Source of the DNA: a virus
Taxonomy: Duplodnaviria > Heunggongvirae > Uroviricota > Caudoviricetes
Reading direction: 5' to 3' (one strand)
Virus record (IMG/VR): IMGVR_UViG_3300023371_000005
DNA: 64,000 bases
Under the pieces are notes generated by a model. It did not search any database, had not been told where the DNA came from, and saw only the letters and a program-made list of their open reading frames with translations. Position 1 is the stretch's first letter. Each line of letters starts with the position of its first letter. Below are positions 22,812 through 45,068 of this stretch, one piece after another. Made by a program: the position numbers and the translations under genes.

Positions 22812-24299
22812 TTGGCAAGATACGTTAAGTTTATGCGAGGTACTCCTACACAGTACGCCGCTTTGGTTGAAAAAGATATTGATACCCTGTATTTTATTGC
22901 TGAACCTACTGCTAGTGAAGGTTGCTTGTACTTAGGTAATAAGTTAATTGCTGGTAATGGCGAAAGCAATAGCGGAGATCTATCTGAATTACTAAGTTTA
23001 AACGACTTATCTGATGTCATTGTAAATTCCTTAGACTTATCTGATGCTTCCTTTCTAATCTACAATCAATCTCAAGGTGCTTGGGTAAATTGTAGTAAAG
23101 AAGCATTAGTATTTGTTGGCTCTTCTTCTTTGTCCGACGGTAAGGCTGGCCTAGTGCCAGCCCCCGCAAAGGGCGAAGAAAATATGTTCTTGCGTGCGGA
23201 CGGCACTTGGGCCGTTCCTGAAGGCGCAGGAGCTGCTTCTAATGCTGTTGTTTATCAAGTAACCGCAGAAGCAGATGAGAGCAAGGAGGCCGCAATCGTT
23301 CGCATCGTAAATGGTGCTGAATTGCATAAAAATGATGTAGCAATCGTAAGAGTCTTAATTGCTAATGATATGTATGAGCATACTGCTTATGTATATGACG
23401 GTACAAATTGGGCCGCCATGGATGGCAATTATAACGCTGAAAATGTTTACTTCAAAAGCGATTTTGTATTTACTGAAAATGTAGGTACAGTAAAAATTCC
23501 AGAGTCTGGTAATATTGAAGTTCAGGCCGCAGGTTTGAATGTTGCTGAGTTCTTTAATAAGTTGTTCTCTGAGGTAAAAGATCCAACAATTACCGATGTA
23601 GAGTTCACTGTCTCCTGGGATGGAACTAAGACTTCTTATGAAGTTGGCACTTCTGTAATTCCTAAGTATACTTCTACTTTCACTCCTGGTAGTTATGAAT
23701 TTGGCCCTGAAAGTACTGGCGTAACTGTTAGTAGTTATAGTGTTGTTGATACCAATAACAATACTGCTAATACAGCTTCTGGCTCCATGCCAGAAATTAC
23801 CATTACTGATGATACTAAGTATTCTGTAGCAATTACTGCTACTTATACTGATGGTGTTAAAGCCTATAATAACTTACAGCAAGAAAGCGCAGAATATATC
23901 AAGGGTGGTTCCGTAACTAAGGCTACTAGTTCTATTATTGGTTATCGCGCTTCTTTTGTTGGTGTTGATAATGGTACTGGAGCTATTGACTCTGCTGTAA
24001 TTAGAGGTTTAGCTACTTCTTGGAATTATAATGCCGGTAAGGTTATTACTGTTGACGCAGAAACTATTAATAATCCTACTCGTATTATTATTGCTATTCC
24101 TGCTTCTAATACTCGTAATGGTATTAAAGAAATTATTATGCCTGAATCTATGAATTATAATTGCACTGCTGACTATGTACAGCAAGATAATGTTATGGTT
24201 GAAGGTGCTAATGGTGCTACCGCTGCTGAGTATGAAGTTTGGGTTTATGCTCCAAGTAAAATGGGTGTTGATGAAGTCCATAAAATTACTTTGAACTAA
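22812..24299 (+). CDS. Hypothetical structural or fiber protein, 495 aa. TTG start, no TAG.
   Basis: Continuous ORF. RBS AGGAAGGAGAG upstream. TAA stop. Confidence 0.5.
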   Translation: MARYVKFMRGTPTQYAALVEKDIDTLYFIAEPTASEGCLYLGNKLIAGNGESNSGDLSELLSLNDLSDVIVNSLDLSDASFLIYNQSQGAWVNCSKEALVFVGSSSLSDGKAGLVPAPAKGEENMFLRADGTWAVPEGAGAASNAVVYQVTAEADESKEAAIVRIVNGAELHKNDVAIVRVLIANDMYEHTAYVYDGTNWAAMDGNYNAENVYFKSDFVFTENVGTVKIPESGNIEVQAAGLNVAEFFNKLFSEVKDPTITDVEFTVSWDGTKTSYEVGTSVIPKYTSTFTPGSYEFGPESTGVTVSSYSVVDTNNNTANTASGSMPEITITDDTKYSVAITATYTDGVKAYNNLQQESAEYIKGGSVTKATSSIIGYRASFVGVDNGTGAIDSAVIRGLATSWNYNAGKVITVDAETINNPTRIIIAIPASNTRNGIKEIIMPESMNYNCTADYVQQDNVMVEGANGATAAEYEVWVYAPSKMGVDEVHKITLN

Positions 24300-24313
24300 G
24301 GAGGAATTGAAGA

Positions 24314-25735
24314 ATGGCTGTAATTAGACAAGATTTTAATGTCATGTACTTGCCTGCTGCTATTCAGAGAAATAATCCAATTCCTCTGGATAGTACTGCC
24401 TTATGGTATGACTATGATTTGATGGCTGCTTATGCAGCTAGTGATCCTACTGCCTATGTAGGTCAGATTTTAAGCTTGGTTGTTGATGATGTAGCTAATG
24501 CTTATATTATTACTAACTTAGCTGGAGATTTAGAAAAAGTTGGCTCTGCTGTTGTTGCTGATAACAAAACTATTGTTTTGGATAATGGCGCAGTAGCTTT
24601 CAAAGATTTTGGTAAGCGTTATTATAAATATGACGCAGAAACCGAAGAATATACTTTACAGGAAGTTGATGAAAACCATCCTTGGATTGCTGGTCTAGAA
24701 CCAAAAGTAACTAGTGAAGCCGGTCAATTGGTATTAGGTTGGTTTGAGCCAAATTCAACTACATTGGAAGGTGTAAATAGTTCTTTAAGCACTTTACAGA
24801 CTTCTGTAAGTGATTTACAGGGTACTGTTGAGAGCTTGGGTATCCAGGTTTCTTTGAATGAGAAGGCTTTAGAGAATGTTTATACTAAAGAAGAGACCTT
24901 AGCTGAAATTGCTAAGGCTGGACATCTAGTATATAAAAAAGTTGATAGTTTAGATGACATTCAGGCGGATATTGATAATGAAGATGCTAATGTTTCTAAT
25001 ACTATTTACTTAGTTCCTGTTTTAGAAGGCTTAGTAAATGACGTATATGATGAATATATGGTTATTGATGGTGGGATTGAAAGATTAGGTTCTTGGGAAG
25101 TTAATCTTGATAATTATGCCACCAAGGATGATCTTGATGGAAAAGTTGATAAAGTTGATGGCTATGGACTAATGTCTACAGCTCAGACTGCTAAATTAGC
25201 TACCATTGAAGAAGGCGCTCAAAAGAACGTTATCAATGAAGTTAGTGATGAGTTTGAAATTACTGATGGTAAGTTAAAACTTATCAGCTTACCTGATACT
25301 GCTAATATTGCAAATCATACAACTATTTTATCTTTACAGTCTGGTATTGACTCTAAAGTCACTATTGTCCCAGGCAAGAGCTTAGTTGATGATACTCTAA
25401 TTGCAAAGTTAGAGGCAATGAATGCAGAGGGCGAGAAAAATGTTATCAATGCGGTTGATGAAAATGAATTAGCAATTGATGAAAACCGCACTTTATCTAT
25501 TGTTTCCGTAAGTGGTTCTAAGATTGCTGAATTGGATTTAAATGAAGATTTTAAGAATTTGTCTAATAATGTAGATAGTTTATCTACTGACTTAGCTGCT
25601 TTAAATGCTTCTTTACAATCTTTGGATACAACTTTAACTGCTTATAAGATTGAAGTTTCTCAAACTTATTTAACTAAGTCTGAGTTTGAGGATCGTTTTG
25701 CTTGGCATGAGTTATCTGACTTTGTCACTACTTAA
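24314..25735 (+). CDS. Fiber-like structural protein, 473 aa, no TAG
   Basis: AAGGAGG RBS 7 nt upstream. Continuous ORF. TAA stop. Confidence 0.55.
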   Translation: MAVIRQDFNVMYLPAAIQRNNPIPLDSTALWYDYDLMAAYAASDPTAYVGQILSLVVDDVANAYIITNLAGDLEKVGSAVVADNKTIVLDNGAVAFKDFGKRYYKYDAETEEYTLQEVDENHPWIAGLEPKVTSEAGQLVLGWFEPNSTTLEGVNSSLSTLQTSVSDLQGTVESLGIQVSLNEKALENVYTKEETLAEIAKAGHLVYKKVDSLDDIQADIDNEDANVSNTIYLVPVLEGLVNDVYDEYMVIDGGIERLGSWEVNLDNYATKDDLDGKVDKVDGYGLMSTAQTAKLATIEEGAQKNVINEVSDEFEITDGKLKLISLPDTANIANHTTILSLQSGIDSKVTIVPGKSLVDDTLIAKLEAMNAEGEKNVINAVDENELAIDENRTLSIVSVSGSKIAELDLNEDFKNLSNNVDSLSTDLAALNASLQSLDTTLTAYKIEVSQTYLTKSEFEDRFAWHELSDFVTT

Positions 25736-25755
25736 TATAAGGAGGATTACTAATA

Positions 25756-27885
25756 ATGGCTGATGAAAAATTAAGTTTATTATTTAGAAGAGGTACAATC
25801 GACCAGATTTTAGCTGGCGATAATATTGTTCCTGGTGCCGTTTCTTTCTGTACTGATGAGCCTGGTATTTATCTAGATTTAACTACTGATGAAGGCGGCG
25901 GTGTTGCTAAGAGAGTCCGTGTCGGTGATTTCATCTCTGTTGCTAGCTTTGACGATATCAAGGCTGCTGCCGCAGCTGCTACAGATCCTGACAAAGCTTT
26001 CTCTGAGCATTGCTTATACTACTCTATCCAAGAGAATGCTTTGATGAAGTACAAGAAGAGCGAAAAGACTTTTGTACTTATCAATGATTTAAGTGATGTA
26101 AATGCTGATATTGCGGCCCTTGATGTTAGAATTACTACTAATGAGGGCTATATTAAGACCTTGCAAACTAATTTAGCTACTGAGACTACTCGTGCTACTA
26201 ACGCTGAAGCCGCCCTAAGAAATCGTATTGATGCTTTAACTGGCGGTGGAGATGGCTCTACTGATTCTTTAACCCAATTAAGAGCAGATTTAAATGCTGA
26301 AATTGAGGCTAGAGAAGATGGCGATGAGGCTTTACAAGGCAGTATTACCACTCTAAGTGGACGTGTTAGTACCAATGAGGGTGATATCTCTAACTTAAAG
26401 ACTTTGTTTGGTCAATTACCAGATGGAGTTGCTACTAACATTGTTGATTATGTAAATGCTAAGGTTCTTGCAGAGCAGGAACGTGCAACTGGTATTGAAA
26501 ATGGCTTACGTACCGATGTAGATAAGAATACTGGTAATATCAGTACCTTAACAACTGGTTTGACTGATGAAGCTGCTCGTGCTAAGGCTGCTGAGCAAGC
26601 TAATGCGACTGCTGCTGCTAATGCTCAGTCTAAGGCTGATGAAGCTGCCACAGCTGCCGCCAATGAAGCTTCTCGTGCTATTGGAGTTGAAGGCAAGTTA
26701 AGAACACTTATTACTAACCTAACTAATACTCACACTACTGATAAGAATGCTTTAGAGCAGTCTATTACTGGTTTAACTAGTAGCTTAGCTGCCACTACTG
26801 GTATTGCTAACGATGCTAAGACTCAGTCTGACACTAATAAAGCTGGTTTAGCTCAAGAATTGGTAGACCGTGCCACTGGCGATCAAGCTAATGCTGATGC
26901 TATTGAAGCCTTGGATGGCGAATTGGCCGAAGAAGTCGAAAGACTGGAAGGTTTGATTGGTGAGGCTGGCTCTAGTGCTGATGCTGTTCGGTTGAATTTG
27001 AATAAAGAAATTGCAGACCGTCAAGCAGCTGATCAGGCTAATGCTCAAGCTATCGCTAATGTCGATACTGCTTTAGAACAGGAAAAGACAGCTCGTACTA
27101 ATGCCGATACTGAGTTAGACGGAAAGATTACTACTGTTTCTAATGGTTTGGCTGCAACTGATGGTAAAGTTTCTACTTTAGAAAATTGGAAGACAACTGC
27201 TTCAAAACAAATTAAAGATTTAGAGGATTGGGCAACTGATACTGATGACACAATTCAGCAGGAAGCTCAAGCCCGTCAGACTGCTATCAATAATTTAAAC
27301 AATGCTTTGACTTCTGAAACTGAGGCTCGTGAGAAGAGAGACGAAGAGTTAACTAATTTAATTAGTGCTGAAACCAAGGATCGTGAAGATGCTATTGCCG
27401 ATGCTTTAACTCAGGCTGCTAATACTGCTGACGAAAAAGACCAGGCTTTGCTAGATCTGATTAATGAGAATATGGCTGCCGCAAACTCCATGTCCTTCAA
27501 GGGTAGCGTAACCGGTTATGACAGCTTACCTGCTTCTGGAATCCAGGCTGGTGACACTTACGTTGTAACTACTGCTTTTAGTAACGCTGAAACTGAGCCT
27601 CAGATTGGTGACTTATTGGTTGCTAGAGATGATCAGGCAGACGGTGCTACTTTAGCTGATGCTAATGCTAAGAAGGATTTCTTCATCTGGGTTAAGACTG
27701 GTTATTCTACTTTCAATGATCCTGAATTGGTTGTTGAAGATGCCAAGATCAAGATGAAGAGCCATTTAGGTGAAGTTTTAGGAACTGTTTCTGTTATTTC
27801 TGCTAGCGAGAATATTGTAACTAATATTTCTGGCGAAGGAAAAGACTGCACCGTAAATGTTAGCTTCGTATGGGGAACATTCTAA
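25756..27885 (+). CDS. Coiled-coil fiber protein, 709 aa, no TAG
   Basis: AAGGAGG RBS. Long heptad-like repeats (ATNAEAALRNRIDAL etc). TAA stop. Confidence 0.55.
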   Translation: MADEKLSLLFRRGTIDQILAGDNIVPGAVSFCTDEPGIYLDLTTDEGGGVAKRVRVGDFISVASFDDIKAAAAAATDPDKAFSEHCLYYSIQENALMKYKKSEKTFVLINDLSDVNADIAALDVRITTNEGYIKTLQTNLATETTRATNAEAALRNRIDALTGGGDGSTDSLTQLRADLNAEIEAREDGDEALQGSITTLSGRVSTNEGDISNLKTLFGQLPDGVATNIVDYVNAKVLAEQERATGIENGLRTDVDKNTGNISTLTTGLTDEAARAKAAEQANATAAANAQSKADEAATAAANEASRAIGVEGKLRTLITNLTNTHTTDKNALEQSITGLTSSLAATTGIANDAKTQSDTNKAGLAQELVDRATGDQANADAIEALDGELAEEVERLEGLIGEAGSSADAVRLNLNKEIADRQAADQANAQAIANVDTALEQEKTARTNADTELDGKITTVSNGLAATDGKVSTLENWKTTASKQIKDLEDWATDTDDTIQQEAQARQTAINNLNNALTSETEAREKRDEELTNLISAETKDREDAIADALTQAANTADEKDQALLDLINENMAAANSMSFKGSVTGYDSLPASGIQAGDTYVVTTAFSNAETEPQIGDLLVARDDQADGATLADANAKKDFFIWVKTGYSTFNDPELVVEDAKIKMKSHLGEVLGTVSVISASENIVTNISGEGKDCTVNVSFVWGTF

Positions 27886-27948
27886 TTCGGACAGAAAAGG
27901 ACAATAAATAAGTTGTTATTTTCAAATCCTTATGAAGGATGATTATAT

Positions 27949-27985
27949 GGAGAGGATAATATAATTATCCTCTCCATTTTTTTTA
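27949..27985 (+). terminator. Rho-independent terminator
   Basis: GGAGAGGATAAT-ata-ATTATCCTCTCC 12-bp perfect stem followed by a T-run. Confidence 0.6.
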
Positions 27986-28010
27986 TATTTGGATAGAAAG
28001 GAGAGCAACA

Positions 28011-31000
28011 ATGGTAGATCAAAAAAATGTTTTACAATCTATTGGCGCCCGTGAGACCGGCAATGTTTTTAGACCTGTAAATTGTACTGAGCAAGACATG
28101 AAGAGAAAACGTGCTATTCCAGGCTACTTATACTTCACACAAGATTCTCATAAGATTTATCAAGGCTTAGGCTCTGGTGAATACCAGATGGTCGGCGGCA
28201 GTTCTAGTATTTTCTACGGCAAATATCCTATGACCGATGATGAAAAATACGGAACTAATGTTTTCTTTACTTTCTCTATGACTGAACATATTGAAGGAGA
28301 AAATGTTCCTGCCTTAGATTCTTTGATTTTGAATATACCTGATGGCGGTTTTTACAGAGTATTAAATGTTGATGGTGACGCCATTGCTGTAGAAAGACTG
28401 GCTATGTCTGGCGGCGGTGGAGATAACACTGGTCCTGGCTCTAATCAAAAAGGTAATATTACTATTGAATATTACAATGGCGCTGACGTTGATACTAATA
28501 TCACTATCTTAAATGGTGTTGAGCATTGGATTGAGTTTACTATTACTGCAACTGATGAAGTTGGAGATATCTTAACTGAAACTGGTACCGCAAGTTGGGC
28601 TATTAATGGTAAGACTTATACTCAATCTGTAACTACTGGCTATAATAAATTCAGAGTTGATGAACTTTTACCCATGGCAAAAGATGGTAACTATACTCGT
28701 ATTAACTTGATGGTCTATATGAATACTGGCGGTATCACTGATAACTATGCTAGTAAGCAATGGAATATCCAAAAAGTTGATTTGCGTTTAGAGTGGCCTT
28801 TCACTTATTCTGAAGATGAATATCGTAAAGATTCAACCTTTACTTTAGTATTCAAACCTTTTGGTGGTATTAATTGTACCGCTCATATTACTTTTGACAA
28901 TGGTTCTACTCTAGGACAAGATTACTTCGAGGAAGATATTCCTGCTAATCGCGCAAACGGTAATGAATTTACTACTCAAGCAATGAAGAGTCTGTCTTAT
29001 GGTGAGCATACTTGTTCTATTTATTTGGATGCCACTATCAATGAAGATACTGGAAAGCCAATTACTGTTAGAACACAAGAAATTGTTCATAGAATCACTT
29101 TCACCGAAGGTGGTACTTCTACAATTTTAACCGTCCCATTTGATCAAAAGACTGCTACTCAATATGACACTATTGAGATTCCATTCTTAGTTTATGACCC
29201 AGATACAACTGAATGTAGTGTTACTTTCTCTGTTAATGATAACGTAATTTCTACTCGTAGCTACAACAGAGATAAGCAATCTATTCCTTACACAATTACC
29301 ACTCATGGTACTATTAAGTTAGCTTTAGAGTCTACTAATGGTGATACTAAGAGAGAATTCAATATCACTGTTGAACCTTTGGATTTGAACAGAGAAGAAG
29401 TTAGTGGTGCAGCTTTTAGCTTAAAAGCAATTAATTTCTCTGGTAATGATGAAGTTATTAACTGGGTTGGCGGTAGTGAAACTAAGCCTGTAAGATTGAA
29501 CTTCTCTGATAATTTTGACTGGCGTAATGGCGGTCTAAAATATGAAGTTCTTGCAGATGGAAGCATTGAAAAGTTTATCTGTGTGCGCCAGGGTACTTGG
29601 ATGGAAATTGACTATAAGTTATTTGAAAATTTCAAAACTGGTACTACCGGTGGTAAGAACTTTAAGTTCTGCTTCAAGGCAGCCAACTGTTATGATTATG
29701 AAGCTCCAGTTTTAAGCTGTATCCATTATAATTATAACGAAATTGAATTGACTGAAGATACTTATAGAACTAATAAGTATTATATCCTTTCTGGCTCTGA
29801 TTATATTATTTCTAGAAATCCATTTGATGAAACTGCTACTTATTTTGAGAAAGTAAGAGTCGCTGAAATTGGTCTAGAATTTGATGCTCAGAAAGCAACT
29901 TTCTCTTCTGCTACTTATCCTAATTTCGCAACTCAGTATTGTGAAAACTCTTATATTGAAGTTGAAACTGAAATTTGGCCCAATGTAGGAGATAGACAGC
30001 AAGGTAGTAAAACCGTTTATGGTGATCGCTACTTAATGATTTGGGTTGATGGTGTTCCTGCAGGTGCTAAGCCTTACAGCCAAAACATGGCTTTACAGCA
30101 AAATGATGCTCAAACCATTCGCATTGGTTCTGATTCTTGTGACGTCTATGTATATACCGCAAAAGCATATGAACGTAGATTAACAAATGATGAACATTTA
30201 AATAACTTCGTTATGGATGCTCCTAGCGTTAATAAGATGCTAGAGCGCCATCGCCGCAATGATATTATTGACTCCAGTACCGGCGAAATTTCTTATGAGC
30301 TTTTGGTGCAGAAAAATCCTGGATGCCATGCTTATTTGTATGATATTCCAGAATTAACTACTAATAAAGAAGATAAGATTGATGGCTGTACTTATTATGA
30401 GTTGATTAATGAATATGATAATTTAGGTAAGCCATTTATGAGAGCAGATAAAGTTAGAACTTATGTTCAGGGCACTTCTTCTGCCGCTTATGGTGTTGCC
30501 GCATTTAACTTACGTTCTGATTTTACTAAAAAAGGTAAAATTTATGATAAGAATGGTAATGAAATCCCTGGATGGAGACCTTCTGATGAAGATGAATATA
30601 TTGACATTGCTTGTACTAAAGTTAATGTTGCTTCTTGTGAAAATGCCAATAACGTTGTAAACGCAGAATGGTATAACAGATTCCAGCCTTACTGGGATGC
30701 TCACAGAAGAAAAGGTACTCGTTATGACAGTGATGGTAATTTATTATACAATCCTATGCGTGACTGTATGAAATTCCACTCTGGCGTTGTCTTCTTGAGA
30801 GACCACAATACACAATTCAAATATTTAGATGACAATGGAGATCCTAAGAGTGAAATCTATTTGGAGTCCAATGCATTTATCAACCCAACTAACCCTGATT
30901 GGGAAGCAAAATATGCCGCAGAACCTTATTTTAAGATGTATTCTATCGGCAATATGGGTAATGATAAGAAGAATTTGAATGTTTTCCATGATACTACCAA

Positions 31001-34000
31001 TCCACGTGCGGCCTGTGTCGAAGTTCTAGATAACCAGAACGCAGAACACTGGATGACTATTTTCAATGAAAAAGCTTTTGAAAAAGAAGTTGTAGGTCAG
31101 GACGAAGAAGGTAAAGATATTACCAAGGGTCCATACTATGAGTTCCGTTATGGTCTTGTAGAAAATGAAGACTTGTTAGAAAATGAGCAGGGCATTACCG
31201 TAGAACAACAAGAACAAGATTTCTTGAGACTGGCTGAATGGTTCGCAATGAATGATCCAAGTCCATATGATGAGTTGTCTCACCCCAATGGATATACTGG
31301 TGAAGAATTGCCTGAACCTGTAACCTTTACTGATGATTTTGTGTTTGAAGGCTTCGATCCTCCTGGATACGAAGGCCAGCCAAATCCAACTGAAATTAGT
31401 CTAAAGGGTCAGAAAATTAGTCGTTACAAAGGTACTTATACCCACGACACTAAAGATTATCGTATCGCTAAAATGTTGTATGAATGTGAAGATTACTTGG
31501 TTATGGATTCTGTTGTATTCCATTATTTGTATATCTCTCGTCACACCATGGTTGATAACGTTGCTAAGAACACTTTCTGGAGCACCGAAGATGGATTCCA
31601 CTGGGATCTAACTAAAAACTACGATAATGATACTTCTGATGGTAATGATAATACTGGTAACTTGACTTATACATATGGTCTAGAAGTCGGTGATATTAAC
31701 CCCAATGGTAAAGATGTTTTCAATGCTTCTCCTTCCGTATGGTTGAATTTCATTCATGAATTAAGAGAGGCTCAGCAATATCTATTCCAGGAGTTGAGTA
31801 AGAAGGGTGCTTGGGATGCTGATGATTATCTAGCTGAATTTAAGGCTCACCAAGATATTATTCCCGAAATTTGCTGGATTCAGGACTATGAAAGAAAATA
31901 TATTCGTCCTAGACGCTTAGGTCTTGATGAAACTACTTTCTTAAGTCGTCTAGAGGGTGGTCGTAAGACTCACCAGAGAAAGCAATATGAAACTTATCAA
32001 GAGTTCTATCTGAACTCTAAATATGTTGCAAGTACTGCTTTCACAGACAGTGCTGGTATCGAATTCCGTTTCAATAAAGACGGTGATTTCGCATTGCAAC
32101 CAACTGACGTTCTTCCCATGACTTTCTATATTGATTGTTATGGCACTATCCACTTAGGTGGTCAGAAGAGAACTTCTACTCGTATTAAGAGAGGTAATTA
32201 TTATAATGCCCCTGTCGGTGAATTGATTTCTGCCGCAAGCGATGCTACTTGCTATATTTATGGTGCAAGTATGATTCAAACAATTAAAGACTTGTATAAG
32301 TTGTATCCTGGTTATGCCAAGATGACTAATGCAAGTAAATTGCGTGAATTTGAAATCGGTTCTGATATAGAAGGTTATTATAACCCTCGTTTGAGCGAAG
32401 TTAGCGTTGGTACTAACGCAATGTTACAAAAATTCCAGGCTAGAAATGTCGGTAACCCCGAGAATATTTCTATCCTAAGCTTAACTAACGCAACTCAGCT
32501 AGAAACTGTTCTAATGAGTGGTAGTGCTTTCAAAGAATTGTCTTTGGCTCCTAACGCAACTACCAAAGAACTTGAATTAAACCCATTAGCAATCTTCTCT
32601 GCAACAAATCTTCTTGATTTGGAAACTGTTAGATTGGATGATGGAATTTATGATTCAATTCAGCAGGCTTACATTAATAACTGCCCTGGCTTAGATGTTT
32701 ACACTTATCGCTTCGCAAAAGCTCCTTCTTTAACTAACTATCAATTTACCGATGTAAATTGGGTTATTAATGATGAGACTGAAGATGATTTCGTCTTAGA
32801 TGCCGATAATAATGTTGTAGCCTTTGCCGCTCTTGAAAACTTAACTGATAATAATACTGGTCCTAGACTTGGTACTACTACTGTTACTGCTTTAAGCGGT
32901 ACATTAACAGTTGATAAGGCTTGCGCTATTGATGAATATAAGATTTACAAAACTTATGCAAAAACTTATCCAAACTTGATTTTCAAGTACACTGATAAAG
33001 TTGGTGCTAATTTCAACCCCGCAGTTGAATTAATTTTCTTAACCAATGAAAATTCTGAGGAACAATATTACAGAGTATTGGGTAGCGGTGATACCTCTGG
33101 AGAAAATGCTCACAGTATTGCTTATCTAACTTCCGCACAAGGTCCTTTAGGTTTTGCTATTGGTACTCCTCACAAGGAATCTACTTCTTCTCATGATTTT
33201 GCATTTACTGGCTATTGGATTCATAAAAAGGATAATGTAATTACTAAGTATTACAATACAAAAGATTTGCCAGATGGAGCAGTTCCAGAAGCATCTGCAA
33301 TCTCCTTTGAAGATATTACTCCAACTGAAAGTATGACATTCTATCCAGAGTATATTACTACTGATAGAGAGTACAAAGTTCGCTTCTGCGACTGGGCTGG
33401 TAATATTATCTTACAGAATGGTGAAGAGTATTGGCCTGTTCCTTATGGTAAGACTTACGTCGAGGCCGCAGGTCCAATGACTAATTTCCACTATCGTGAT
33501 AATACAGGTCTACAAGATCATATGAGATGGGCATTCCAAGGTTGGTCTAAGAACCAATACAAGGATAAGGAAATTAAGAATCCTGTTTATGAAGATTTGG
33601 CAACAATGGTAGTTACTAATGATGTGACTTTACATGGTCACTATTTAACTGAAGACTGCCGTGATGTCGCTTCTAAATTGGAATATTTCAATTTCAGCGA
33701 GCGTGGTAAGATCTCAATCGCTGAGGAATATCGTGAAACTTTACAAGGTAAAATTACTTTACCTAGTGAATATGATGGTATCCCTCTAACTCAGGTAAAA
33801 GACTTTAAGAATATGGCTCGTGTTACTCACGTATTCTTCTTGAGAACCAATACTTCTTATACAAGTATTTTCCAACAAGCCTTCGAAGGAGCTTTAGCTT
33901 TGCAATATGTTGATTTGCCTATTGGAATTACTCATATCGGAACATATGCTTTCAAGAGTATCAAGAGTTTAACTACTGTTGATATGAAATCTAATGTTGA

Positions 34001-34481
34001 AGAAATTGGTAGCCAGGCATTCTATGAAACCAACATTAACTTAACTTCTTTACCTGCTAAACTAAAACTTCTAAAGTCTGGTGCATTCATGGATTGTCGT
34101 GAATTGACTTTGTCTGCTTTACCAGCTTCTTTAGAGACTATCGAAAGCCACGTATTTTTCTTATGTCCTAAGATTAGTATTAATCAATTGGGTGGCGGTG
34201 ACGCTAAATTGAGTTATATCGGTATGCAAGCTTTTGGCGGCGGTTCTGGCGCTAATGGCACTGTTACTGATATTTACTTCGGCTCAACGGTTAACTTCAT
34301 TGGTGAAAACGCCTTCAAGGGATATGGTAAAAATGGTCGTGTAAGTACTATTAGCTTTGCTAAACAAAGTGTTGAAGATTATCTAATGACTGATACAGCC
34401 TACCATACTAGTATTTCTACTATGGGATTTGATAATCCTCCTTACACTGAAGTTTGGGATTGGAAAGGAGAAGGTTCTTAA
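28011..34481 (+). CDS. Giant virion-associated protein, 2156 aa, with C-terminal BspA-type leucine-rich repeats. No TAG.
   Basis: RBS AAAGGAGAG. Continuous ORF ending at TAA. The last roughly 250 aa carry repeated motifs typical of BspA/TpLRR: xIGxxAFxxCxxLTSLxLPxxLxxIxxxAF. Confidence 0.6.
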   Translation: MVDQKNVLQSIGARETGNVFRPVNCTEQDMKRKRAIPGYLYFTQDSHKIYQGLGSGEYQMVGGSSSIFYGKYPMTDDEKYGTNVFFTFSMTEHIEGENVPALDSLILNIPDGGFYRVLNVDGDAIAVERLAMSGGGGDNTGPGSNQKGNITIEYYNGADVDTNITILNGVEHWIEFTITATDEVGDILTETGTASWAINGKTYTQSVTTGYNKFRVDELLPMAKDGNYTRINLMVYMNTGGITDNYASKQWNIQKVDLRLEWPFTYSEDEYRKDSTFTLVFKPFGGINCTAHITFDNGSTLGQDYFEEDIPANRANGNEFTTQAMKSLSYGEHTCSIYLDATINEDTGKPITVRTQEIVHRITFTEGGTSTILTVPFDQKTATQYDTIEIPFLVYDPDTTECSVTFSVNDNVISTRSYNRDKQSIPYTITTHGTIKLALESTNGDTKREFNITVEPLDLNREEVSGAAFSLKAINFSGNDEVINWVGGSETKPVRLNFSDNFDWRNGGLKYEVLADGSIEKFICVRQGTWMEIDYKLFENFKTGTTGGKNFKFCFKAANCYDYEAPVLSCIHYNYNEIELTEDTYRTNKYYILSGSDYIISRNPFDETATYFEKVRVAEIGLEFDAQKATFSSATYPNFATQYCENSYIEVETEIWPNVGDRQQGSKTVYGDRYLMIWVDGVPAGAKPYSQNMALQQNDAQTIRIGSDSCDVYVYTAKAYERRLTNDEHLNNFVMDAPSVNKMLERHRRNDIIDSSTGEISYELLVQKNPGCHAYLYDIPELTTNKEDKIDGCTYYELINEYDNLGKPFMRADKVRTYVQGTSSAAYGVAAFNLRSDFTKKGKIYDKNGNEIPGWRPSDEDEYIDIACTKVNVASCENANNVVNAEWYNRFQPYWDAHRRKGTRYDSDGNLLYNPMRDCMKFHSGVVFLRDHNTQFKYLDDNGDPKSEIYLESNAFINPTNPDWEAKYAAEPYFKMYSIGNMGNDKKNLNVFHDTTNPRAACVEVLDNQNAEHWMTIFNEKAFEKEVVGQDEEGKDITKGPYYEFRYGLVENEDLLENEQGITVEQQEQDFLRLAEWFAMNDPSPYDELSHPNGYTGEELPEPVTFTDDFVFEGFDPPGYEGQPNPTEISLKGQKISRYKGTYTHDTKDYRIAKMLYECEDYLVMDSVVFHYLYISRHTMVDNVAKNTFWSTEDGFHWDLTKNYDNDTSDGNDNTGNLTYTYGLEVGDINPNGKDVFNASPSVWLNFIHELREAQQYLFQELSKKGAWDADDYLAEFKAHQDIIPEICWIQDYERKYIRPRRLGLDETTFLSRLEGGRKTHQRKQYETYQEFYLNSKYVASTAFTDSAGIEFRFNKDGDFALQPTDVLPMTFYIDCYGTIHLGGQKRTSTRIKRGNYYNAPVGELISAASDATCYIYGASMIQTIKDLYKLYPGYAKMTNASKLREFEIGSDIEGYYNPRLSEVSVGTNAMLQKFQARNVGNPENISILSLTNATQLETVLMSGSAFKELSLAPNATTKELELNPLAIFSATNLLDLETVRLDDGIYDSIQQAYINNCPGLDVYTYRFAKAPSLTNYQFTDVNWVINDETEDDFVLDADNNVVAFAALENLTDNNTGPRLGTTTVTALSGTLTVDKACAIDEYKIYKTYAKTYPNLIFKYTDKVGANFNPAVELIFLTNENSEEQYYRVLGSGDTSGENAHSIAYLTSAQGPLGFAIGTPHKESTSSHDFAFTGYWIHKKDNVITKYYNTKDLPDGAVPEASAISFEDITPTESMTFYPEYITTDREYKVRFCDWAGNIILQNGEEYWPVPYGKTYVEAAGPMTNFHYRDNTGLQDHMRWAFQGWSKNQYKDKEIKNPVYEDLATMVVTNDVTLHGHYLTEDCRDVASKLEYFNFSERGKISIAEEYRETLQGKITLPSEYDGIPLTQVKDFKNMARVTHVFFLRTNTSYTSIFQQAFEGALALQYVDLPIGITHIGTYAFKSIKSLTTVDMKSNVEEIGSQAFYETNINLTSLPAKLKLLKSGAFMDCRELTLSALPASLETIESHVFFLCPKISINQLGGGDAKLSYIGMQAFGGGSGANGTVTDIYFGSTVNFIGENAFKGYGKNGRVSTISFAKQSVEDYLMTDTAYHTSISTMGFDNPPYTEVWDWKGEGS

Positions 34482-34693
34482 TGACTAAAGATAGAAAATA
34501 CAGATACCTTGGCCGCAATGGTATTTTAGATACTAAGGTCCTTCTAGATGGTATCAATCATATCAATATCGTAACTATCAATGCTGATCCCGGCAAGATT
34601 TTAACTAATGGTGAGCGTACTCAGTACAGCGTCACTGTTGAAGAGGCCGAGGAACATAAGTGGAGAGAAATTACGGACAATACCAAAAAATAA
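34481..34693 (+). CDS. Small hypothetical protein, about 70 aa. ATG overlaps the upstream TAA.
   Basis: ATG 34481 is in frame with track ORF 34454..34693. AAGGAGAAGG precedes it. Confidence 0.4.
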   Translation: MTKDRKYRYLGRNGILDTKVLLDGINHINIVTINADPGKILTNGERTQYSVTVEEAEEHKWREITDNTKK

Positions 34694-34711
34694 GGTTATT
34701 TGATTTTTCAG

Positions 34712-34743
34712 TTCTAGGGAAGGGAAATTCCTTCCCTAGAACA
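34712..34743 (+). other. Perfect 13-bp hairpin GTTCTAGGGAAGG / CCTTCCCTAGAAC without a T-run
   Basis: Inverted repeat seen directly. No U-tract on either strand, so not an intrinsic terminator. Possible RNA stability or processing element. Confidence 0.4.
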
Positions 34744-34769
34744 ATATTATAAAGAAAGGAAGATATAAC

Positions 34770-36782
34770 GTGATTACAGTCTATAATAAAGATTATAAAG
34801 ACCAATATACCGTTCTATTCCAAGACGCATATAACGTTTTATTGGATATGCAGGCTAAAGATCCTCTTGGTGTAAAGATTAATCAGTCTGTTTTGGATAA
34901 AGGCAAAATCAGTTCTCTTGAAGAGTATTTTGCTCATATTGGTTATTTAGCAGATTATCACACTGAAAATATTAGAAATAATCCACCTTCTAATGTTGCA
35001 TATCAAAACTCTGCTAAGTTCTTGATGCTTCCTATGGATGAAAAATACGATGTCAAGTCTGGCTGTTTTTACATTGACCTAAATACTAGAAATATTCAGG
35101 TTCCTGATATTTATAGTAAATATGGTGTTAGTGTTACTGGTGATCAGTTAGCCGAGACTTTGATGTTTAAGGTTCCTCGCTATTTCGATTATACTGACTT
35201 GGCTTCTACTGAAATTTATGTTCAGTGGACTAACCCAGCAGGAGACGAAGGTGCTTCTCGTATTGTCTTAGTTGACTTTGAAGCAGAAGAAGGTTATCTA
35301 TTATTTGGTTGGCCTTTGACCAGTAAGGTTACTGTTGAAGGTAAAAATCCTTTGAAGTTCTCTGTTCGTTTCTTCGTAAGAAATGAAGAGAAAGAAATTC
35401 AGTACAGCTTAAATACTTTGGCTAGTTCTGTTATGATTAAGCAAGCTCTATATACTCATTTCAATGCTGACCTAGACATTGATGATCCATCTTTGTTGTT
35501 TGCGGCCGCAGTTGAAAATGGCGTTGACTCCAACATGACTCTACCTCAGATTCCTGTCTTCTTCTATGATTGGAAATTGGGTAATGACGAAGGAAAAGCT
35601 TTCTTAAAGAATGATGCAATTAAGCTATATGCTAGCGGTGCCACTGCTGATGCAGGTCAGTTGTGCTACAAGTGGTATTATACTCCTCGATTCATCGAAA
35701 ATAATGTCGCTGTAACTAAAGATACTGAAGAAGTTTTCAAGGCTTACGCTGATGTAGATACTATCTTCAAGCCCACAAATGATACTGAAAAAGAAGCTGG
35801 CAAGACTTATTATGTTGAAGAAATCGAAGCTGAAACTGGCAATCAGATTTATACTGTTTTCCTAGGCGATGCTTTTGAAGAGCCAGAAGAGGGAGAAGCT
35901 GCTCCTGTTTATTATGAGCAGGTAAGTGTTTATACCATTTTGGCTGTTGATGATGATGCTGAGGATTTGGGTGCTTCTACTGCGCTAGCACCTAATAAGA
36001 GATATTGGCCTCACGTCACCGGTGAATACAAGCTAACTTTGAACAATCAAGTTGGTAGTAGCAAATCTGCAGAGAGCGTTGATTCTTTGAAGTGCGTAAT
36101 TCCTTGTGTTGAAAAAGTTGAGTTCACCGCAGATTTACCTAAGAACAAAGTTCTATCTACTATTGGCGAAGGCGAAGAGACTGTTAGCCAGGCTATTTTA
36201 ACTGTTACTGTTGATGCAAATGACGGTGCTGAAAAGAGCTATGTATGGTATGAAGCTGCTTCTTCTGACGCTGAATATGTTGAAGTTCCCAATGCTTCTA
36301 ATGCTAGTATGACTGCTACTCAGCCAGGCTGGTATAAAGTTAAGGCTATCGGTACTTTGAACAGAGAGAGTATGTGGAAAGAAAGTTCTGAATGTAAGGT
36401 TACTTATCCTGCTGAAGCTCCTGAAATCGTCAAGTATCTAGTTGATGGTATCGAGTATCCTATTACAGATGATGACCCAACTTTAGAGAATGTTCCTGGC
36501 TTGAATACTCCTATTACCTTCAAGATTGAAATTGAAGAAATGAATGAGTTCCAGACTGACGGTGTCACTTACAAGTGGTTCCGCAATACTCCTAACCAGA
36601 ATGGTACTCCTATTAAGGATTCTGATCTAGATATTATTAGTGTAAATGGCAGTGAAATTACTGTTAAGCTATTAGCTAATAATGACTTGCCTGTTAATAT
36701 TGCCTTCTATTACTGTGAAATCACTAATACTCTAGCAGGAGAAGAAAAGAAAACTACTTCTAAGGTATTCCAGATTTCTTAA
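34770..36782 (+). CDS. Hypothetical structural protein, 670 aa. GTG start, no TAG.
   Basis: RBS AAAGGAAG. Continuous ORF. TAA stop. Confidence 0.5.
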   Translation: MITVYNKDYKDQYTVLFQDAYNVLLDMQAKDPLGVKINQSVLDKGKISSLEEYFAHIGYLADYHTENIRNNPPSNVAYQNSAKFLMLPMDEKYDVKSGCFYIDLNTRNIQVPDIYSKYGVSVTGDQLAETLMFKVPRYFDYTDLASTEIYVQWTNPAGDEGASRIVLVDFEAEEGYLLFGWPLTSKVTVEGKNPLKFSVRFFVRNEEKEIQYSLNTLASSVMIKQALYTHFNADLDIDDPSLLFAAAVENGVDSNMTLPQIPVFFYDWKLGNDEGKAFLKNDAIKLYASGATADAGQLCYKWYYTPRFIENNVAVTKDTEEVFKAYADVDTIFKPTNDTEKEAGKTYYVEEIEAETGNQIYTVFLGDAFEEPEEGEAAPVYYEQVSVYTILAVDDDAEDLGASTALAPNKRYWPHVTGEYKLTLNNQVGSSKSAESVDSLKCVIPCVEKVEFTADLPKNKVLSTIGEGEETVSQAILTVTVDANDGAEKSYVWYEAASSDAEYVEVPNASNASMTATQPGWYKVKAIGTLNRESMWKESSECKVTYPAEAPEIVKYLVDGIEYPITDDDPTLENVPGLNTPITFKIEIEEMNEFQTDGVTYKWFRNTPNQNGTPIKDSDLDIISVNGSEITVKLLANNDLPVNIAFYYCEITNTLAGEEKKTTSKVFQIS

Positions 36783-36800
36783 TAAAGGAGGTCAATAATT

Positions 36801-37448
36801 ATGTCACAGTTAAGTCAAACTGCTATTGACAAATTATATGAAATCCAAAGAAGTAATCCTCCAAAGATGGCTTCCATTCCATATGCGGAGGATTACATTG
36901 AAGTTGATTGGCGTACTCGCTCAATTGGAGAACGTGATATCCTAAGCACTGCTCGTGACCATAAATCCGAAAATTTATACTTTATCATGGATAGATATTG
37001 GGATTATATGGACTTGTCTACCACCACCTGTGTTATTTCTTATAAGACTTATCCCGCAGACCCCCAGAAGCAAGGTGTGACTGGTTTATATGCCGTTCCA
37101 TATTACGACATTTATACTCATAAAGCTACTCCTGGCACTTTGGAAAAGGATAAGATGGTTATTCCATGGTGTATTGATGGACGAGTAACTCAAGACGAAG
37201 CAGAAGTAGAATATGCCATTCGTTTTTATCGTGTTGATGCTGATGGAAAGAAAATCCTCTATAATATCAGCACCATGCCAAATGTTGGCAAAGTCCTATA
37301 TGGACTAAACGTTCAGCCAAACGGCCTTGAAGACGCCGGAGATCTAGCTGGTGATTATGATATTGCTAGTAGTATGTATGAACATTTTACTGACGAAATC
37401 AGAAAATTAAATCAGCAAGATATTTTTTGGATTGAATTTGTTTCATAA
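36801..37448 (+). CDS. Hypothetical protein, 215 aa, no TAG
   Basis: AAAGGAGG RBS. TAA stop. Confidence 0.5.
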   Translation: MSQLSQTAIDKLYEIQRSNPPKMASIPYAEDYIEVDWRTRSIGERDILSTARDHKSENLYFIMDRYWDYMDLSTTTCVISYKTYPADPQKQGVTGLYAVPYYDIYTHKATPGTLEKDKMVIPWCIDGRVTQDEAEVEYAIRFYRVDADGKKILYNISTMPNVGKVLYGLNVQPNGLEDAGDLAGDYDIASSMYEHFTDEIRKLNQQDIFWIEFVS

Positions 37449-41933: not shown

Positions 41934-42341
41934 ATGGACTGGATGGTTATGTTATATCAAATTTTTGAACTTTGCGTTATTCCTCTCTTGGGTGTATTGA
42001 CTATGTACTTAGTTCAATTCATTAAAATGAAGAGCCAAGAAATCGCAGATAAGACTGATAGTGAATTAGCAGATAAGTACATTCAAATGCTTGCTGATAC
42101 TATCACTACTTGCGTTATCGCAACTAATCAGACTTATGTTGAATCTTTGAAGAAGCAAGGTAAGTTTGATGCAGAAGCTCAGAAGGAAGCTTTCAATTTG
42201 ACTTATAATGCAGTTATGTCTGTATTAACTGATGAAGCTAAGCATTATTTGGCTTCCATTTATGGCGACTTGACCGCCTACATTACTAGTCGTATTGAGG
42301 CTGAGGTTAATGTAAGTAAGATTGTTCCTGTTACTGAGTAA
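41934..42341 (+). CDS. Small membrane protein with one N-terminal TM helix, 135 aa. Possible holin-like protein.
   Basis: AAGGGGGA RBS. Hydrophobic segment VIPLLGVLTMYLVQFI. TAA stop. Confidence 0.4.
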   Translation: MDWMVMLYQIFELCVIPLLGVLTMYLVQFIKMKSQEIADKTDSELADKYIQMLADTITTCVIATNQTYVESLKKQGKFDAEAQKEAFNLTYNAVMSVLTDEAKHYLASIYGDLTAYITSRIEAEVNVSKIVPVTE

Positions 42342-42351
42342 TTGCGGAGAT

Positions 42352-42394
42352 ACCCGAAAAATACCTAAAAAGTATTTTTCGGGTATTTTTTTTT
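42352..42394 (+). terminator. Strong rho-independent terminator ending the structural operon
   Basis: ACCCGAAAAATAC-ctaaaaa-GTATTTTTCGGGT 13-bp perfect stem followed by a T9 run. Confidence 0.7.
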
Positions 42395-42436
42395 GTCATT
42401 CGCAGGACCTCAAAAAGTTATGTCCCGGTATTCTTA

Positions 42437-42541
42437 CGGTCCATTTTTGGTTATTTTTCATTCCAGTCGCGGTCCATTTTCGGTTAGGGTTCGGTCCTCG
42501 TTTGGACAAATTAGGGTAATTTTTCGGTCCTAATTTTCATA
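42437..42541 (+). repeat. Array of 4 direct repeats sharing the core CGGTCC. Core starts at 42437, 42470, 42492 and 42525, i.e. spacings of 33, 22 and 33 nt.
   Basis: Units: CGGTCCATTTTTGGTTA, CGGTCCATTTTCGGTTA, CGGTCCTCGTTTGGACA, CGGTCCTAATTTTCATA. Located in a 250-nt non-coding region between a terminator and the next gene. Confidence 0.6.
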
Positions 42542-42595
42542 AAGCTATGAGGGGATTGGATAAAATATTTTTTGTATGGAGAGGAGACCTTACAT

Positions 42596-43030
42596 ATGTA
42601 CTCAAACTATAATTATTATCCACAACAACCCTAGCAAGTCGCCCAATAGCAACCAGTGTACCAACCATTGTCTTACTTACGACAGGCGCCGCCGCAAGCA
42701 GGACTGAAAGGACGCTTGGTAGCATCATTGGAAGAGGCCCGTGCAACCTCTATTGACTTTGATGGTTCTGTATTCTACTTCCCAGATTTAGCGAACAGAC
42801 GAATCTACACAAAACAAATAAATATGGATGGCACCGCATCACTGTGTGTGTATGAATTAAGGGAAATGCCCGTTTAGAGAGAAGAGAGCGGTTCTGTTCC
42901 ATCCGTTGAGAAATTTGTAACGAGAGAAGAGTTTGAGCAGGTCCTGGCGCAACTACAAATGCTCCAGAAGCCAACCGAGCCGGCCGTATCTGCCCCCGCA
43001 AAAGAAAAAGTAGAATTAATGTCATTCTAA
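42596..43030 (+). CDS. Gln-rich hypothetical protein, about 144 aa, 3 in-frame TAG. Two of them fall inside the poly-Q run.
   Basis: ATG 42596 preceded by GGAGAGGAG. Reads MYSNYNYYPQQP-TAG-QVAQ-TAG-QPVYQ. Third TAG at 42875. TAA 43028-43030. Confidence 0.55.
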
Positions 43031-43040
43031 GGAGGTATGA

Positions 43041-43295
43041 ATGATGTATCCAGTAAACCCAAATAAATTAATCCAAATGATTAAATCCGGGCAAAATCCT
43101 CAGCAATTGATGTTATCAATTTTGAAAGGACAAGCCTATGATAATCCCCTCGGAAAAAATCTCCTAAATTTAGCTCAATCTGGTCGCACTGTCGAATTAG
43201 AGAAAGTAATTCGCAACCTTTACGCCCAGTAGGGCGGTCAAAATTTCGACCAGGAGTTCGAAGCCTTTAAACGTGCATTAGGCTACAACACTTAA
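43041..43295 (+). CDS. Small hypothetical protein, about 84 aa, one in-frame TAG (43230)
   Basis: TAAGGAGG RBS. ORF continues through the TAG to TAA 43293-43295. Confidence 0.5.
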
Positions 43296-44486: not shown

Positions 44487-45068
44487 ATGGACCACGAAAG
44501 ATTAAAACACATGAAAGAAACTTTAATGTGTGCTGTTGAAGTACAATTATGTGATTTGGGTGAAGTAGATACTAAAGAGCTTGGAGAAGCTATTGATATG
44601 ATTAAAGATTTAGAAGAGGCAATCTACTATTGCACCGTTACAGAAGCTATGAACAACTCTTCACACGAAATGGAGTTTGAAATGAAAAAAGGCGGCCATC
44701 ACCAGTAGGAAAATGGTGACAGCCGCATGTATTATGACAGAAATCGTAGAAGTGATGGTACATTCTATGCTGACAATGATAATTCTTCTTCTTCTGGAAT
44801 GAATAGTTCTAATGGAAGAAATTATTACGATGACCCAGGTATGTGGCGCGATGAGCGCGAAGGCCGCAGTTATAATAGTCGTAGAATGTATATGGAAGCC
44901 AAGGATATGAAACGAGATAAAGCTACTCAATTGCGTGAGTTAGAAAAGTATATGCAAGAGCTATCTCTGGATATTACCGAAATGATTGCGGATGCTTCTC
45001 CAGAAGAAAAAGCATATCTTGAAAAGAAGATAACCGCATTGGCTTCTAAAATTGGTCAAATGAAATGA
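44487..45068 (+). CDS. Hypothetical charged protein, about 193 aa, one in-frame TAG (44706). TGA stop followed one codon later by TAA.
   Basis: Track ORFs 44487..44708 and 44727..45068 are in the same frame. AAGGAGGG RBS. Confidence 0.5.

Follow-up and report, generated by a model that had tools for sequence, protein, structure and literature searches.

A stretch of 64,000 nucleotides (nt) from the tailed phage record IMGVR_UViG_3300023371_000005 (Caudoviricetes), hereafter the window, carries on its plus strand a gene of 144 codons with in-frame TAG codons (42596-43030). Here we examine how UAG is read in this gene and in other late genes of the window. The translation is MYSNYNYYPQQP-TAG-QVAQ-TAG-QPVYQPLSYLRQAPPQAG..., with a TAA stop after 144 codons, exactly as quoted in an earlier reading made from the letters alone (the sequence-only reading), which had taken two TAGs in a poly-glutamine tract as direct evidence that TAG stands for glutamine (Gln). 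The two TAGs are codons 13 and 18; a third TAG, at codon 94, had been missed. The tract is indeed rich in Gln but is better described as Gln/Pro/Tyr-rich low complexity (PQQP-Q-VAQ-QPVYQP), and the run of CAA and CAG codons said to surround the TAGs consists of CAA only (the whole gene has 10 CAA and 3 CAG).

The product matches PHROG 21718 with E = 2.8e-12 and has 4221 database homologues. A Pfam search of the product found no family. An AlphaFold2 model was of low confidence, with a predicted local distance difference test score (pLDDT) of 59.6, and a BFVD fold search with that model returned uncharacterised phage proteins only, so that no function was assigned. The core LKGRPVSSLEEARATSIDFDGSVFYFPDLANKRIYTKQINMDGT is near-invariant in the family, and the model predicts a small beta sheet and a short helix for the core (pLDDT 67-83). 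Scores below 50 are found at residues 10-12, 14-33 and 96-104. The features of the locus are collected in Table 1.

Table 1. Position of the 144-codon gene, its TAG codons and other elements referred to in the text.
Feature	Position	Strand	Description
TAG-containing gene	42596..43030	+	144 codons, ATG to TAA; member of PHROG 21718, a family of unknown function; three in-frame TAGs
TAG codon 13 (P-TAG-Q)	42632..42634	+	From translation; poorly aligning tract
TAG codon 18 (Q-TAG-Q)	42647..42649	+	From translation; stays TAG in most relatives
TAG codon 94 (PV-TAG-REE)	42875..42877	+	From translation; adjoins low-confidence linker of the model
Gln/Pro/Tyr-rich low-complexity tract, codons 9-24, with TAG 13 and TAG 18	42620..42667	+	Predicted disordered by the model
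Conserved core, codons 37-90, LKGRLVASLEEARATSIDFDGSVFYFPDLANRRIYTKQINMDGT...	42704..42865	+	Alignment of 56 unique IMG/VR sequences
Shine-Dalgarno-like AGAGGAG	42581..42587	+	8 nt 5' of ATG; read from sequence
Terminator-like hairpin followed by T run	42346..42390	+	Directly 3' of preceding gene (41934-42341); consensus scan and inverted repeat
Next gene, 84 codons	43041..43295	+	In-frame TAG at 43230-43232 (codon 64); same small-gene operon
Antisense open reading frame, 177 codons, one TAG	42537..43067	-	Covers the whole 144-codon gene
Tail or baseplate-type structural protein, 965 amino acids	17313-20210		Label from sequence reading

With the standard code, the open reading frame (ORF) terminates after 12 codons. 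The next in-frame Met beyond codon 18 is codon 77; hence, production of the most conserved part of the protein (codons 37-76) needs read-through of TAG. In a comparison of the gene with 27 close relatives (unique sequences), codon positions 1/2/3 differed 32/23/71 times in codons 1-12, 299/201/644 in codons 19-93, and 212/172/314 in codons 95-144, where the third-position excess is weaker. Synonymous changes prevail before TAG13 and between TAG18 and TAG94. This frame-specific pattern, together with the existence of homologues, indicates that the plus strand ORF is the gene, and not the antisense ORF. The same TAGs recur in independent assemblies (L081, L161-L166), and are therefore not sequencing errors. 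Judged by its conservation, the 144-codon ORF is a real late gene that is read through in frame. A naive longest-ORF caller favours the antisense ORF over this gene.

The use of TAG was also examined in the whole window, which has a content of guanine plus cytosine (GC) of 36.8%. Genes of at least 80 amino acids (aa) contain 66 in-frame TAGs. Stop-free stretches of at least 100 codons add up to 65 kb with the standard code and to 86 kb if TAG is sense; the latter reading fuses fragments into long ORFs, and a single stop-free stretch of 2770 codons holds 28 in-frame TAGs. On the plus strand, from position 1 to ~45 kb, the window encodes a very large protein (>2760 aa, with 27 TAGs) that is probably tape-measure-like, as well as large tail/fibre proteins and small late genes; these structural labels come from reading the sequences, and family searches gave no confirmation of them. 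The minus strand block (45.4-64 kb) encodes dUTPase, NrdG, NrdD, guanylate kinase, Pol III alpha, helicases, a RecJ-like protein and DnaB, all recognised by Pfam, and a 367-aa protein that was read as a primase, with no family match on record. TAGs are restricted to the structural/late block of the plus strand; the replication block as a whole has next to none, and its genes of the above size have none. None of the 40 genes considered needs TAG as terminator (31 end with TAA and 9 with TGA), a count made with an ORF caller that treated TAG as sense by construction. Split by strand, terminators are 20 TAA and 1 TGA in late genes of the plus strand, and 11 TAA and 8 TGA in early genes of the minus strand.

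Codon usage differs as well. The CAA:CAG ratio is 251:44 in TAG-containing genes and 83:86 in plus strand genes that lack TAG (Fisher p = 3e-16). Depletion of CAG where TAG is used is what would be expected if TAG derives from CAG by transition, and C-to-T changes in CAG appear to be the main source of the UAG codons of the window. As to the neighbourhood of the TAGs, four Gln codons lie within two codons of TAGs 13 and 18 of the 144-codon gene (permutation p = 0.009; p = 0.033 when all three TAGs are included). In the window as a whole, the 66 TAGs have a mean of 0.36 Gln neighbours within two codons, compared with 0.134 for all codons (permutation p = 5e-5), a value that exceeds those of every amino acid, Gln itself included (0.20). 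The Gln-rich context is thus significant for the window and suggestive for the 144-codon gene, where p values of about 0.01-0.03 fall short of the direct evidence that had been claimed.

Two additional observations concern the distribution of TAGs. Six consecutive late genes of the plus strand (488, 473, 709, 2156, 644 and 215 aa; 22833-37448) have no TAG, counting genes of at least 80 aa, and are flanked by late genes rich in TAG. Their CAG:CAA ratio is 73:73, as against the CAA:CAG ratio of 251:44 given above, and their GC content is 35-41%, compared with 33-37% in TAG-containing genes. The late region thus resembles a patchwork, in which recoded modules are poor in CAG and rich in AT, and unrecoded ones rich in CAG; one possibility is that the TAG-free block was acquired by recombination with a relative that uses the standard code. 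Besides, 22 of the 66 TAGs lie in the first 20% of the ORF length, a result that is not firm because the main contributor (30-8312) is cut off at the window edge, which biases relative positions.

To place the window, we compared it with known phages. The Pol III alpha protein shares 38-39% identity with YorL of SPbeta phages and 38% with its counterpart in phage Phass-1 (OQ749652.1). Megablast of the 40-46 kb region against GenBank phages gave no match. Proteins identical to those of the window are found on ENA contigs of 183-209 kb, and in one of them (k141_1895590) the coordinates of the 144-codon gene and DnaB fit a circle of ~183.3 kb. The window belongs to a large tailed phage from gut metagenomes that is SPbeta-like and has a genome of ~183 kb, either circular or circularly permuted.

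The identity of the residue inserted at UAG was addressed by comparing the DNA codons of relatives instead of database translations. The Q found at all three TAG positions in the proteins of database homologues is circular, since those proteins were called with code 15 and the DNA does not translate to them under the standard code; a public protein collection already translates these contigs in this manner. Database homologues (P0001 and its relatives) were therefore rejected as evidence for Gln. The loci used were 80 from IMG/VR and 80 from metagenomes around the 144-codon gene, and 80 from IMG/VR around the 965-aa structural protein. Relatives of the latter were not found in IMG/VR by a scan with the single protein, and an alignment-based scan succeeded. 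A tblastn search was run on 252 loci with X at the TAGs of the window, and the subject codons were read; columns were counted only if their flanks were gap-free and identical in at least five of eight positions. Log-likelihoods (natural logarithm) were calculated from empirical substitution profiles of the same alignments.

Nineteen TAG sites of the window were informative. Most relatives carry Gln at 10 of them, Glu at 4, Asp at 2, Lys at 2 and Leu at 1. The share of Gln (53%) is close to that found at true Gln codons of the window (55%). Gln is also the best-fitting residue (log-likelihood -33.6), followed at a distance of 14.6 units by Glu (-48.2), with all others worse. The reciprocal test gave a similar outcome: among 215 columns with TAG in relatives, the window has Gln at 71 (33%), compared with 31% for true Gln codons and a background of 3.6%, and the log-likelihood of Gln (-517.7) surpasses that of the runner-up, Lys (-632.6), by 115 units. 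Individual columns illustrate the trend. In one relative of the 144-codon gene (L071), TAG occupies the Gln74 column (IYTKQINMDGT), where 55 of 55 other sequences have Gln; in the 965-aa protein, the window TAGs at residues 101 (WFD-Q-G) and 341 (FIF-Q-KK) fall on CAA/CAG Gln columns in 12 and 30 loci, respectively; and TAG, CAG and CAA interchange within the family of the 144-codon gene at codons 17, 18, 23, 30, 119 and 124. Altogether, these codon-level results are much stronger support for the assignment of Gln than the context of the TAGs.

The TAGs of the 144-codon gene itself are less uniform. In the 27 unique relatives, codon 18 is TAG in 15, CAG in two and CAA in one; codon 13 is CAG in five, CAA in one and another codon in 12 (Pro, Thr or Val); and codon 94 is TAG in four and another codon in 21. 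Given the Pro, Thr and Val at codon 13, the view that any other residue would be incongruous in the tract did not hold. Persistence of TAG at codon 18 is seen across relatives with ~73-82% protein identity, even though CAA is the preferred Gln codon. A similar trait is found in the next gene, whose codon 64 reads TAG in 35 loci, as against 4 with CAA. Persistence at both sites may reflect selection or only shared ancestry.

The likely decoder of UAG is a transfer RNA (tRNA) with a CUA anticodon. In the 252 loci around the two marker genes, no suppressor tRNA was found apart from that of Phass-1. Two generic tRNA(CUA) patterns used against IMG/VR were unspecific among the matches listed, and a pattern derived from Phass-1 matched Phass-like phages only. 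The tRNA clusters of relatives were reached through a nuclease-like gene that adjoins them. On IMGVR_UViG_3300032167_000002, which carries the closest IMG/VR homologues of the 144-codon gene (74% and 79% identity), a cluster of 18 tRNA genes (L566) contains a tandem pair of tRNA(CUA) genes and, after it, tRNA-Leu(UAA). The same arrangement is found on 202-kb ENA contigs (L575, L577), and L577 derives from a cohort that also yielded two contigs encoding the exact 144-aa protein. A search for homologues of DUF2828, whose gene lies near the tRNA cluster in relatives, and a look-up of DnaB yielded no tRNA(CUA) locus tied to the window's own contigs. By analogy with these relatives, the genome to which the window belongs probably carries a suppressor tRNA as well.

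The structure of the 75-nt tRNA(CUA) of relatives is informative. Its acceptor stem has U1 mispaired with C72, the pairs G2-C71, G3-C70, G4-C69 and G5-C68, and the discriminator base G73, which is shared with the tRNA-Gln(UUG/CUG) encoded by the phage at the same locus. Positions 1-6 of the 5' acceptor strand are UGGGGG in L566 and UGGGGA in L575, identical in each case to those of tRNA-Gln(UUG) and tRNA-Gln(CUG) of the same genome; the stem thus changes together with tRNA-Gln between the two loci. The anticodon, C34-U35-A36, is one base away from CUG, as in supE-type suppressors. The partner tRNA(CUA) differs between genomes, and in many relatives is ~90 nt in length with a long extra arm. 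Such long-arm molecules make up a widespread class of phage tRNA(CUA) (~85-95 nt, with a conserved C(C/T)(C/T)CTGA(A/G)GG-like motif in the arm), found in L298, L395, L400, L430, L438, L496, L530, L536, L575 and many other IMG/VR loci, and in several genomes in tandem with a normal 75-nt tRNA(CUA). It is conceivable, if speculative, that each of the two tRNA(CUA) species is charged with an amino acid of its own, for instance one with Gln and the other with Glu.

Other peculiarities were detected around the clusters. The 402-kb record IMGVR_UViG_3300032167_000002 (L001, L007, L252, L566) carries the 144-codon gene twice, at 124 kb and at 314 kb (190 kb apart), in diverged copies; the record is probably made of two related ~190-kb phage genomes joined in assembly. 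In a 188-kb phage contig (L298 2404-2752; IMGVR_UViG_3300031555_003801), ARAGORN detected a transfer-messenger RNA with tag peptide AKPYRLAA-stop in the tRNA cluster, beside tRNA(CUA). In relatives, a gene in the vicinity of the tRNA cluster and the DUF2828 gene specifies a protein of 824-841 aa that matches the Major Vault Protein shoulder domain (PF11978; L574 6671-9196; L577 14623-17097).

In view of the codon columns, the bias towards late genes and the tRNA(CUA) genes of close relatives, UAG is very likely a sense codon for Gln (code 15) in many late genes of this phage, and the 144-codon gene would thus acquire Gln13, Gln18 and Gln94. The proposal that TAG stands for Gln, made in the sequence-only reading, is thereby upheld on grounds other than those originally offered. 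Certain observations weigh against it, however. Several TAG columns of the window are occupied by residues other than Gln: Glu at codon 94, Glu at codon 74 of the gene at 44487-45068, and Leu or Met at residue 130 of the 965-aa protein. When codon 94 was scored per locus, near-identical assemblies included, GAA (Glu) was found in 15, GTA in 2 and TAG in 13. All three TAGs of the 144-codon gene lie in poorly constrained segments that are predicted to be disordered; hence, this gene alone says little about the inserted residue. Neither ARAGORN nor Rfam detected a tRNA gene in the 64-kb window (no other Rfam family was found there either), and none was found in the 10 kb to the right of the window in identical genomes. 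Lastly, whole-sequence similarity leaves the isotype of the relatives' tRNA(CUA) ambiguous, with Trp, Gln, Ser and Asn among its nearest neighbours. The sequence-only reading had proposed the alignment of TAG columns with homologues as a check, and consistent non-Gln residues as the outcome that would refute Gln. Run on DNA, that comparison gave a Gln-like profile for the pooled columns, while codon 94, taken alone, would point to Glu.

The latter observation has a possible explanation: UAG might be decoded as Glu, or as a mixture of Gln and Glu, if the host forms Gln-tRNA(Gln) indirectly, through a non-discriminating glutamyl-tRNA synthetase and then the GatCAB amidotransferase, and the suppressor tRNA is poorly amidated. 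An SPbeta-like phage points to a Firmicutes host, and glutaminyl-tRNA synthetase is lacking in many Firmicutes. Furthermore, Glu ranks second at TAG columns, with 4 of 19 sites in the window and 24 of 215 columns in relatives. Glu is, however, also the commonest substitute at true Gln codons, and the share of Gln at TAG columns matches that of true Gln codons in both directions of the comparison. Gln is favoured over Glu by 14.6 log-likelihood units at the TAGs of the window and by ~125 at those of relatives, and the codon depleted where TAG is used is CAG, not GAG. Decoding as Glu has, therefore, little chance of being correct.

Judged by the tRNA genes of relatives and by the TAG columns, insertion of another residue by a different suppressor tRNA (pyrrolysine, or Trp, Tyr, Lys, Leu or Ser) is hardly credible. 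The label "tRNA-Pyl" is given by ARAGORN to CUA anticodons, but by default to every one of them; the relatives' tRNA(CUA) has ordinary D and T arms, and its 75-nt form agrees with tRNA-Gln in the acceptor stem and in G73, features that presumably are not those of tRNA-Pyl. The presence of tRNA-Trp and tRNA-Ser among the nearest neighbours, and a long extra arm like that of class II tRNAs in many relatives, might suggest one of the remaining residues; at the TAGs of the window, however, the log-likelihoods of Lys, Ser, Tyr, Trp and Leu fall 28 to 79 units short of that of Gln. The idea that the TAGs are genuine stops (in a decayed or fragmented pseudogene, opposite a real antisense ORF, or with rare near-cognate read-through) would agree with the 12-codon standard ORF, the overlapping 177-codon antisense ORF and the absence of tRNA from the window, but is extremely improbable given a protein conserved across its TAGs with frame-bound, third-position-dominated change in all segments, a core (codons 37-76) that otherwise would not be made, a TAG kept at codon 18 in diverged relatives, and the number of in-frame TAGs in long structural genes that are conserved (66 in all, 27 in a single ORF), which rules out inefficient read-through.

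If UAG is read as Gln, a likely chain of events can be proposed. A phage-encoded amber-suppressor tRNA(CUA), derived from tRNA-Gln or mimicking it, would accumulate late in infection. A host enzyme that recognises the identity elements of tRNA-Gln would charge it with Gln, and the charged tRNA would out-compete release factor 1 at UAG. Before the suppressor is made, the standard code of the host would stop UAG-containing late genes early, the 144-codon gene after 12 codons. According to the regulatory reading found in the literature (bioRxiv 10.1101/2021.08.26.457843; PMC9523058), translation of late genes waits for the suppressor, and the early/late split of TAGs in the window agrees with this reading.

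A bolder hypothesis is that the UAGs are a maintained translational gate: selection would place UAG early in specific late operons, which would be silent until the tandem tRNA(CUA) pair is expressed. Grounds for this view are the retention of TAG at codon 18 despite a strong preference for CAA, the seeming enrichment of UAGs in the first fifth of genes, the alternation of recoded and unrecoded modules in the late region, and the location of the 144-codon gene, which probably opens a transcription unit behind a terminator. Under such a gate, the TAG-free fibre block would be either exempt on purpose or recently imported from a standard-code relative. We consider the gate unlikely, though not implausible.

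The surroundings of the 144-codon gene deserve some comments. Because a terminator-like hairpin follows the preceding gene, the 144-codon gene probably starts a new transcription unit. Between the hairpin and the ribosome-binding site, the intergenic region (42400-42540) contains at least four direct copies of a CGGTCC(A/T)TTT(T/C)GG-like repeat, at 42437, 42470, 42492 and 42524, and an inverted AGGACC at 42404. The repeats may form an array to which a regulator binds, or mark a late promoter region. Contigs that encode an identical 144-aa protein differ in the tail-fibre region that lies just upstream (L161, L163). Their fibre genes are of different length, and some contigs have an extra ORF of ~220 aa with weak matches to Hint/intein-type domains (L161 4657-5322; L163 4887-5546; ~37.2-37.9 kb of the window). 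The fibre module is thus variable within the species.

A practical consequence of these observations is that the window, and the ~183-kb genome to which it belongs, need translation table 15. Otherwise, tail, fibre and small late genes are shattered, and the 144-codon gene shrinks to a 12-residue peptide. Late genes with recoding, late genes without it and early genes without it occur together in the window, a clean contrast that could serve to test recoding as a timer of lytic expression. Knowledge of the identity of the recoded amino acid is unchanged by this case. Recoding of this kind is already documented in phages and is not a new phenomenon.

On the basis of alignments and suppressor tRNAs, TAG-to-Gln recoding has been predicted for many phage clades (Borges et al., bioRxiv 10.1101/2021.08.26.457843); it has been confirmed by mass spectrometry (metaproteomics) in crAss-like phages (Peters et al. 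2022, PMC9523058), and described for the Phass-1 group or proposed Phassvirus (Babkin et al. 2023, PMC10607447). The NCBI taxonomy holds a 'Caudoviricetes code 15 clade' that includes Phass-1. Recoding of phage late genes is thus established, and the novelty here is an amber-recoded ~183-kb SPbeta-like gut phage lineage that is absent from GenBank phages. Like other code-15 gut phages (crAss-like, Lak, Garnet, Amethyst, Topaz), the window phage has TAGs in structural/late genes and standard-code replication genes, TAG columns that align with Gln, tRNA(CUA) genes in its lineage, and TAA/TGA terminators. It differs from them in belonging to another lineage, with a genome of ~183 kb and an SPbeta-like replication module, and in having a late block that is partly free of TAG (22833-37448). 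Proteomic confirmation of Gln at TAG is so far confined to crAss-like phages, while the recoding of the window phage is known from sequence.

Phass-1, a large phage probably of Clostridia, resembles the window phage in its SPbeta-type Pol III alpha, its NrdD/NrdG and the presence of TAG in structural genes, and shares with the window's relatives a trio made of a tRNA(CUA) pair and tRNA-Leu(UAA). The relationship is, however, distant. In Phass-like genomes, the trio tRNA-Leu(UAA)-tRNA(CUA)-tRNA(CUA) lies directly upstream of nrdD, a place where the window has an 87-nt gap without tRNA. In the window's relatives, by contrast, the trio is found within a large tRNA cluster beside the DUF2828 gene, ~70 kb from the 144-codon gene. 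A final comparison can be made with supE-type amber suppressors, which are tRNA-Gln with anticodon CUA. The 75-nt tRNA(CUA) of relatives has the acceptor stem, G73 and U35 in common with the tRNA-Gln that accompanies it, which fits an origin by a G36A change. Unlike supE, it is phage-encoded and tandemly duplicated, has a U1-C72 mismatch instead of U1-A72, and in several relatives is paired with a 90-nt, long-extra-arm tRNA(CUA). While supE provides partial suppression, the tRNA(CUA) of these phages supports wholesale reassignment of the codon.

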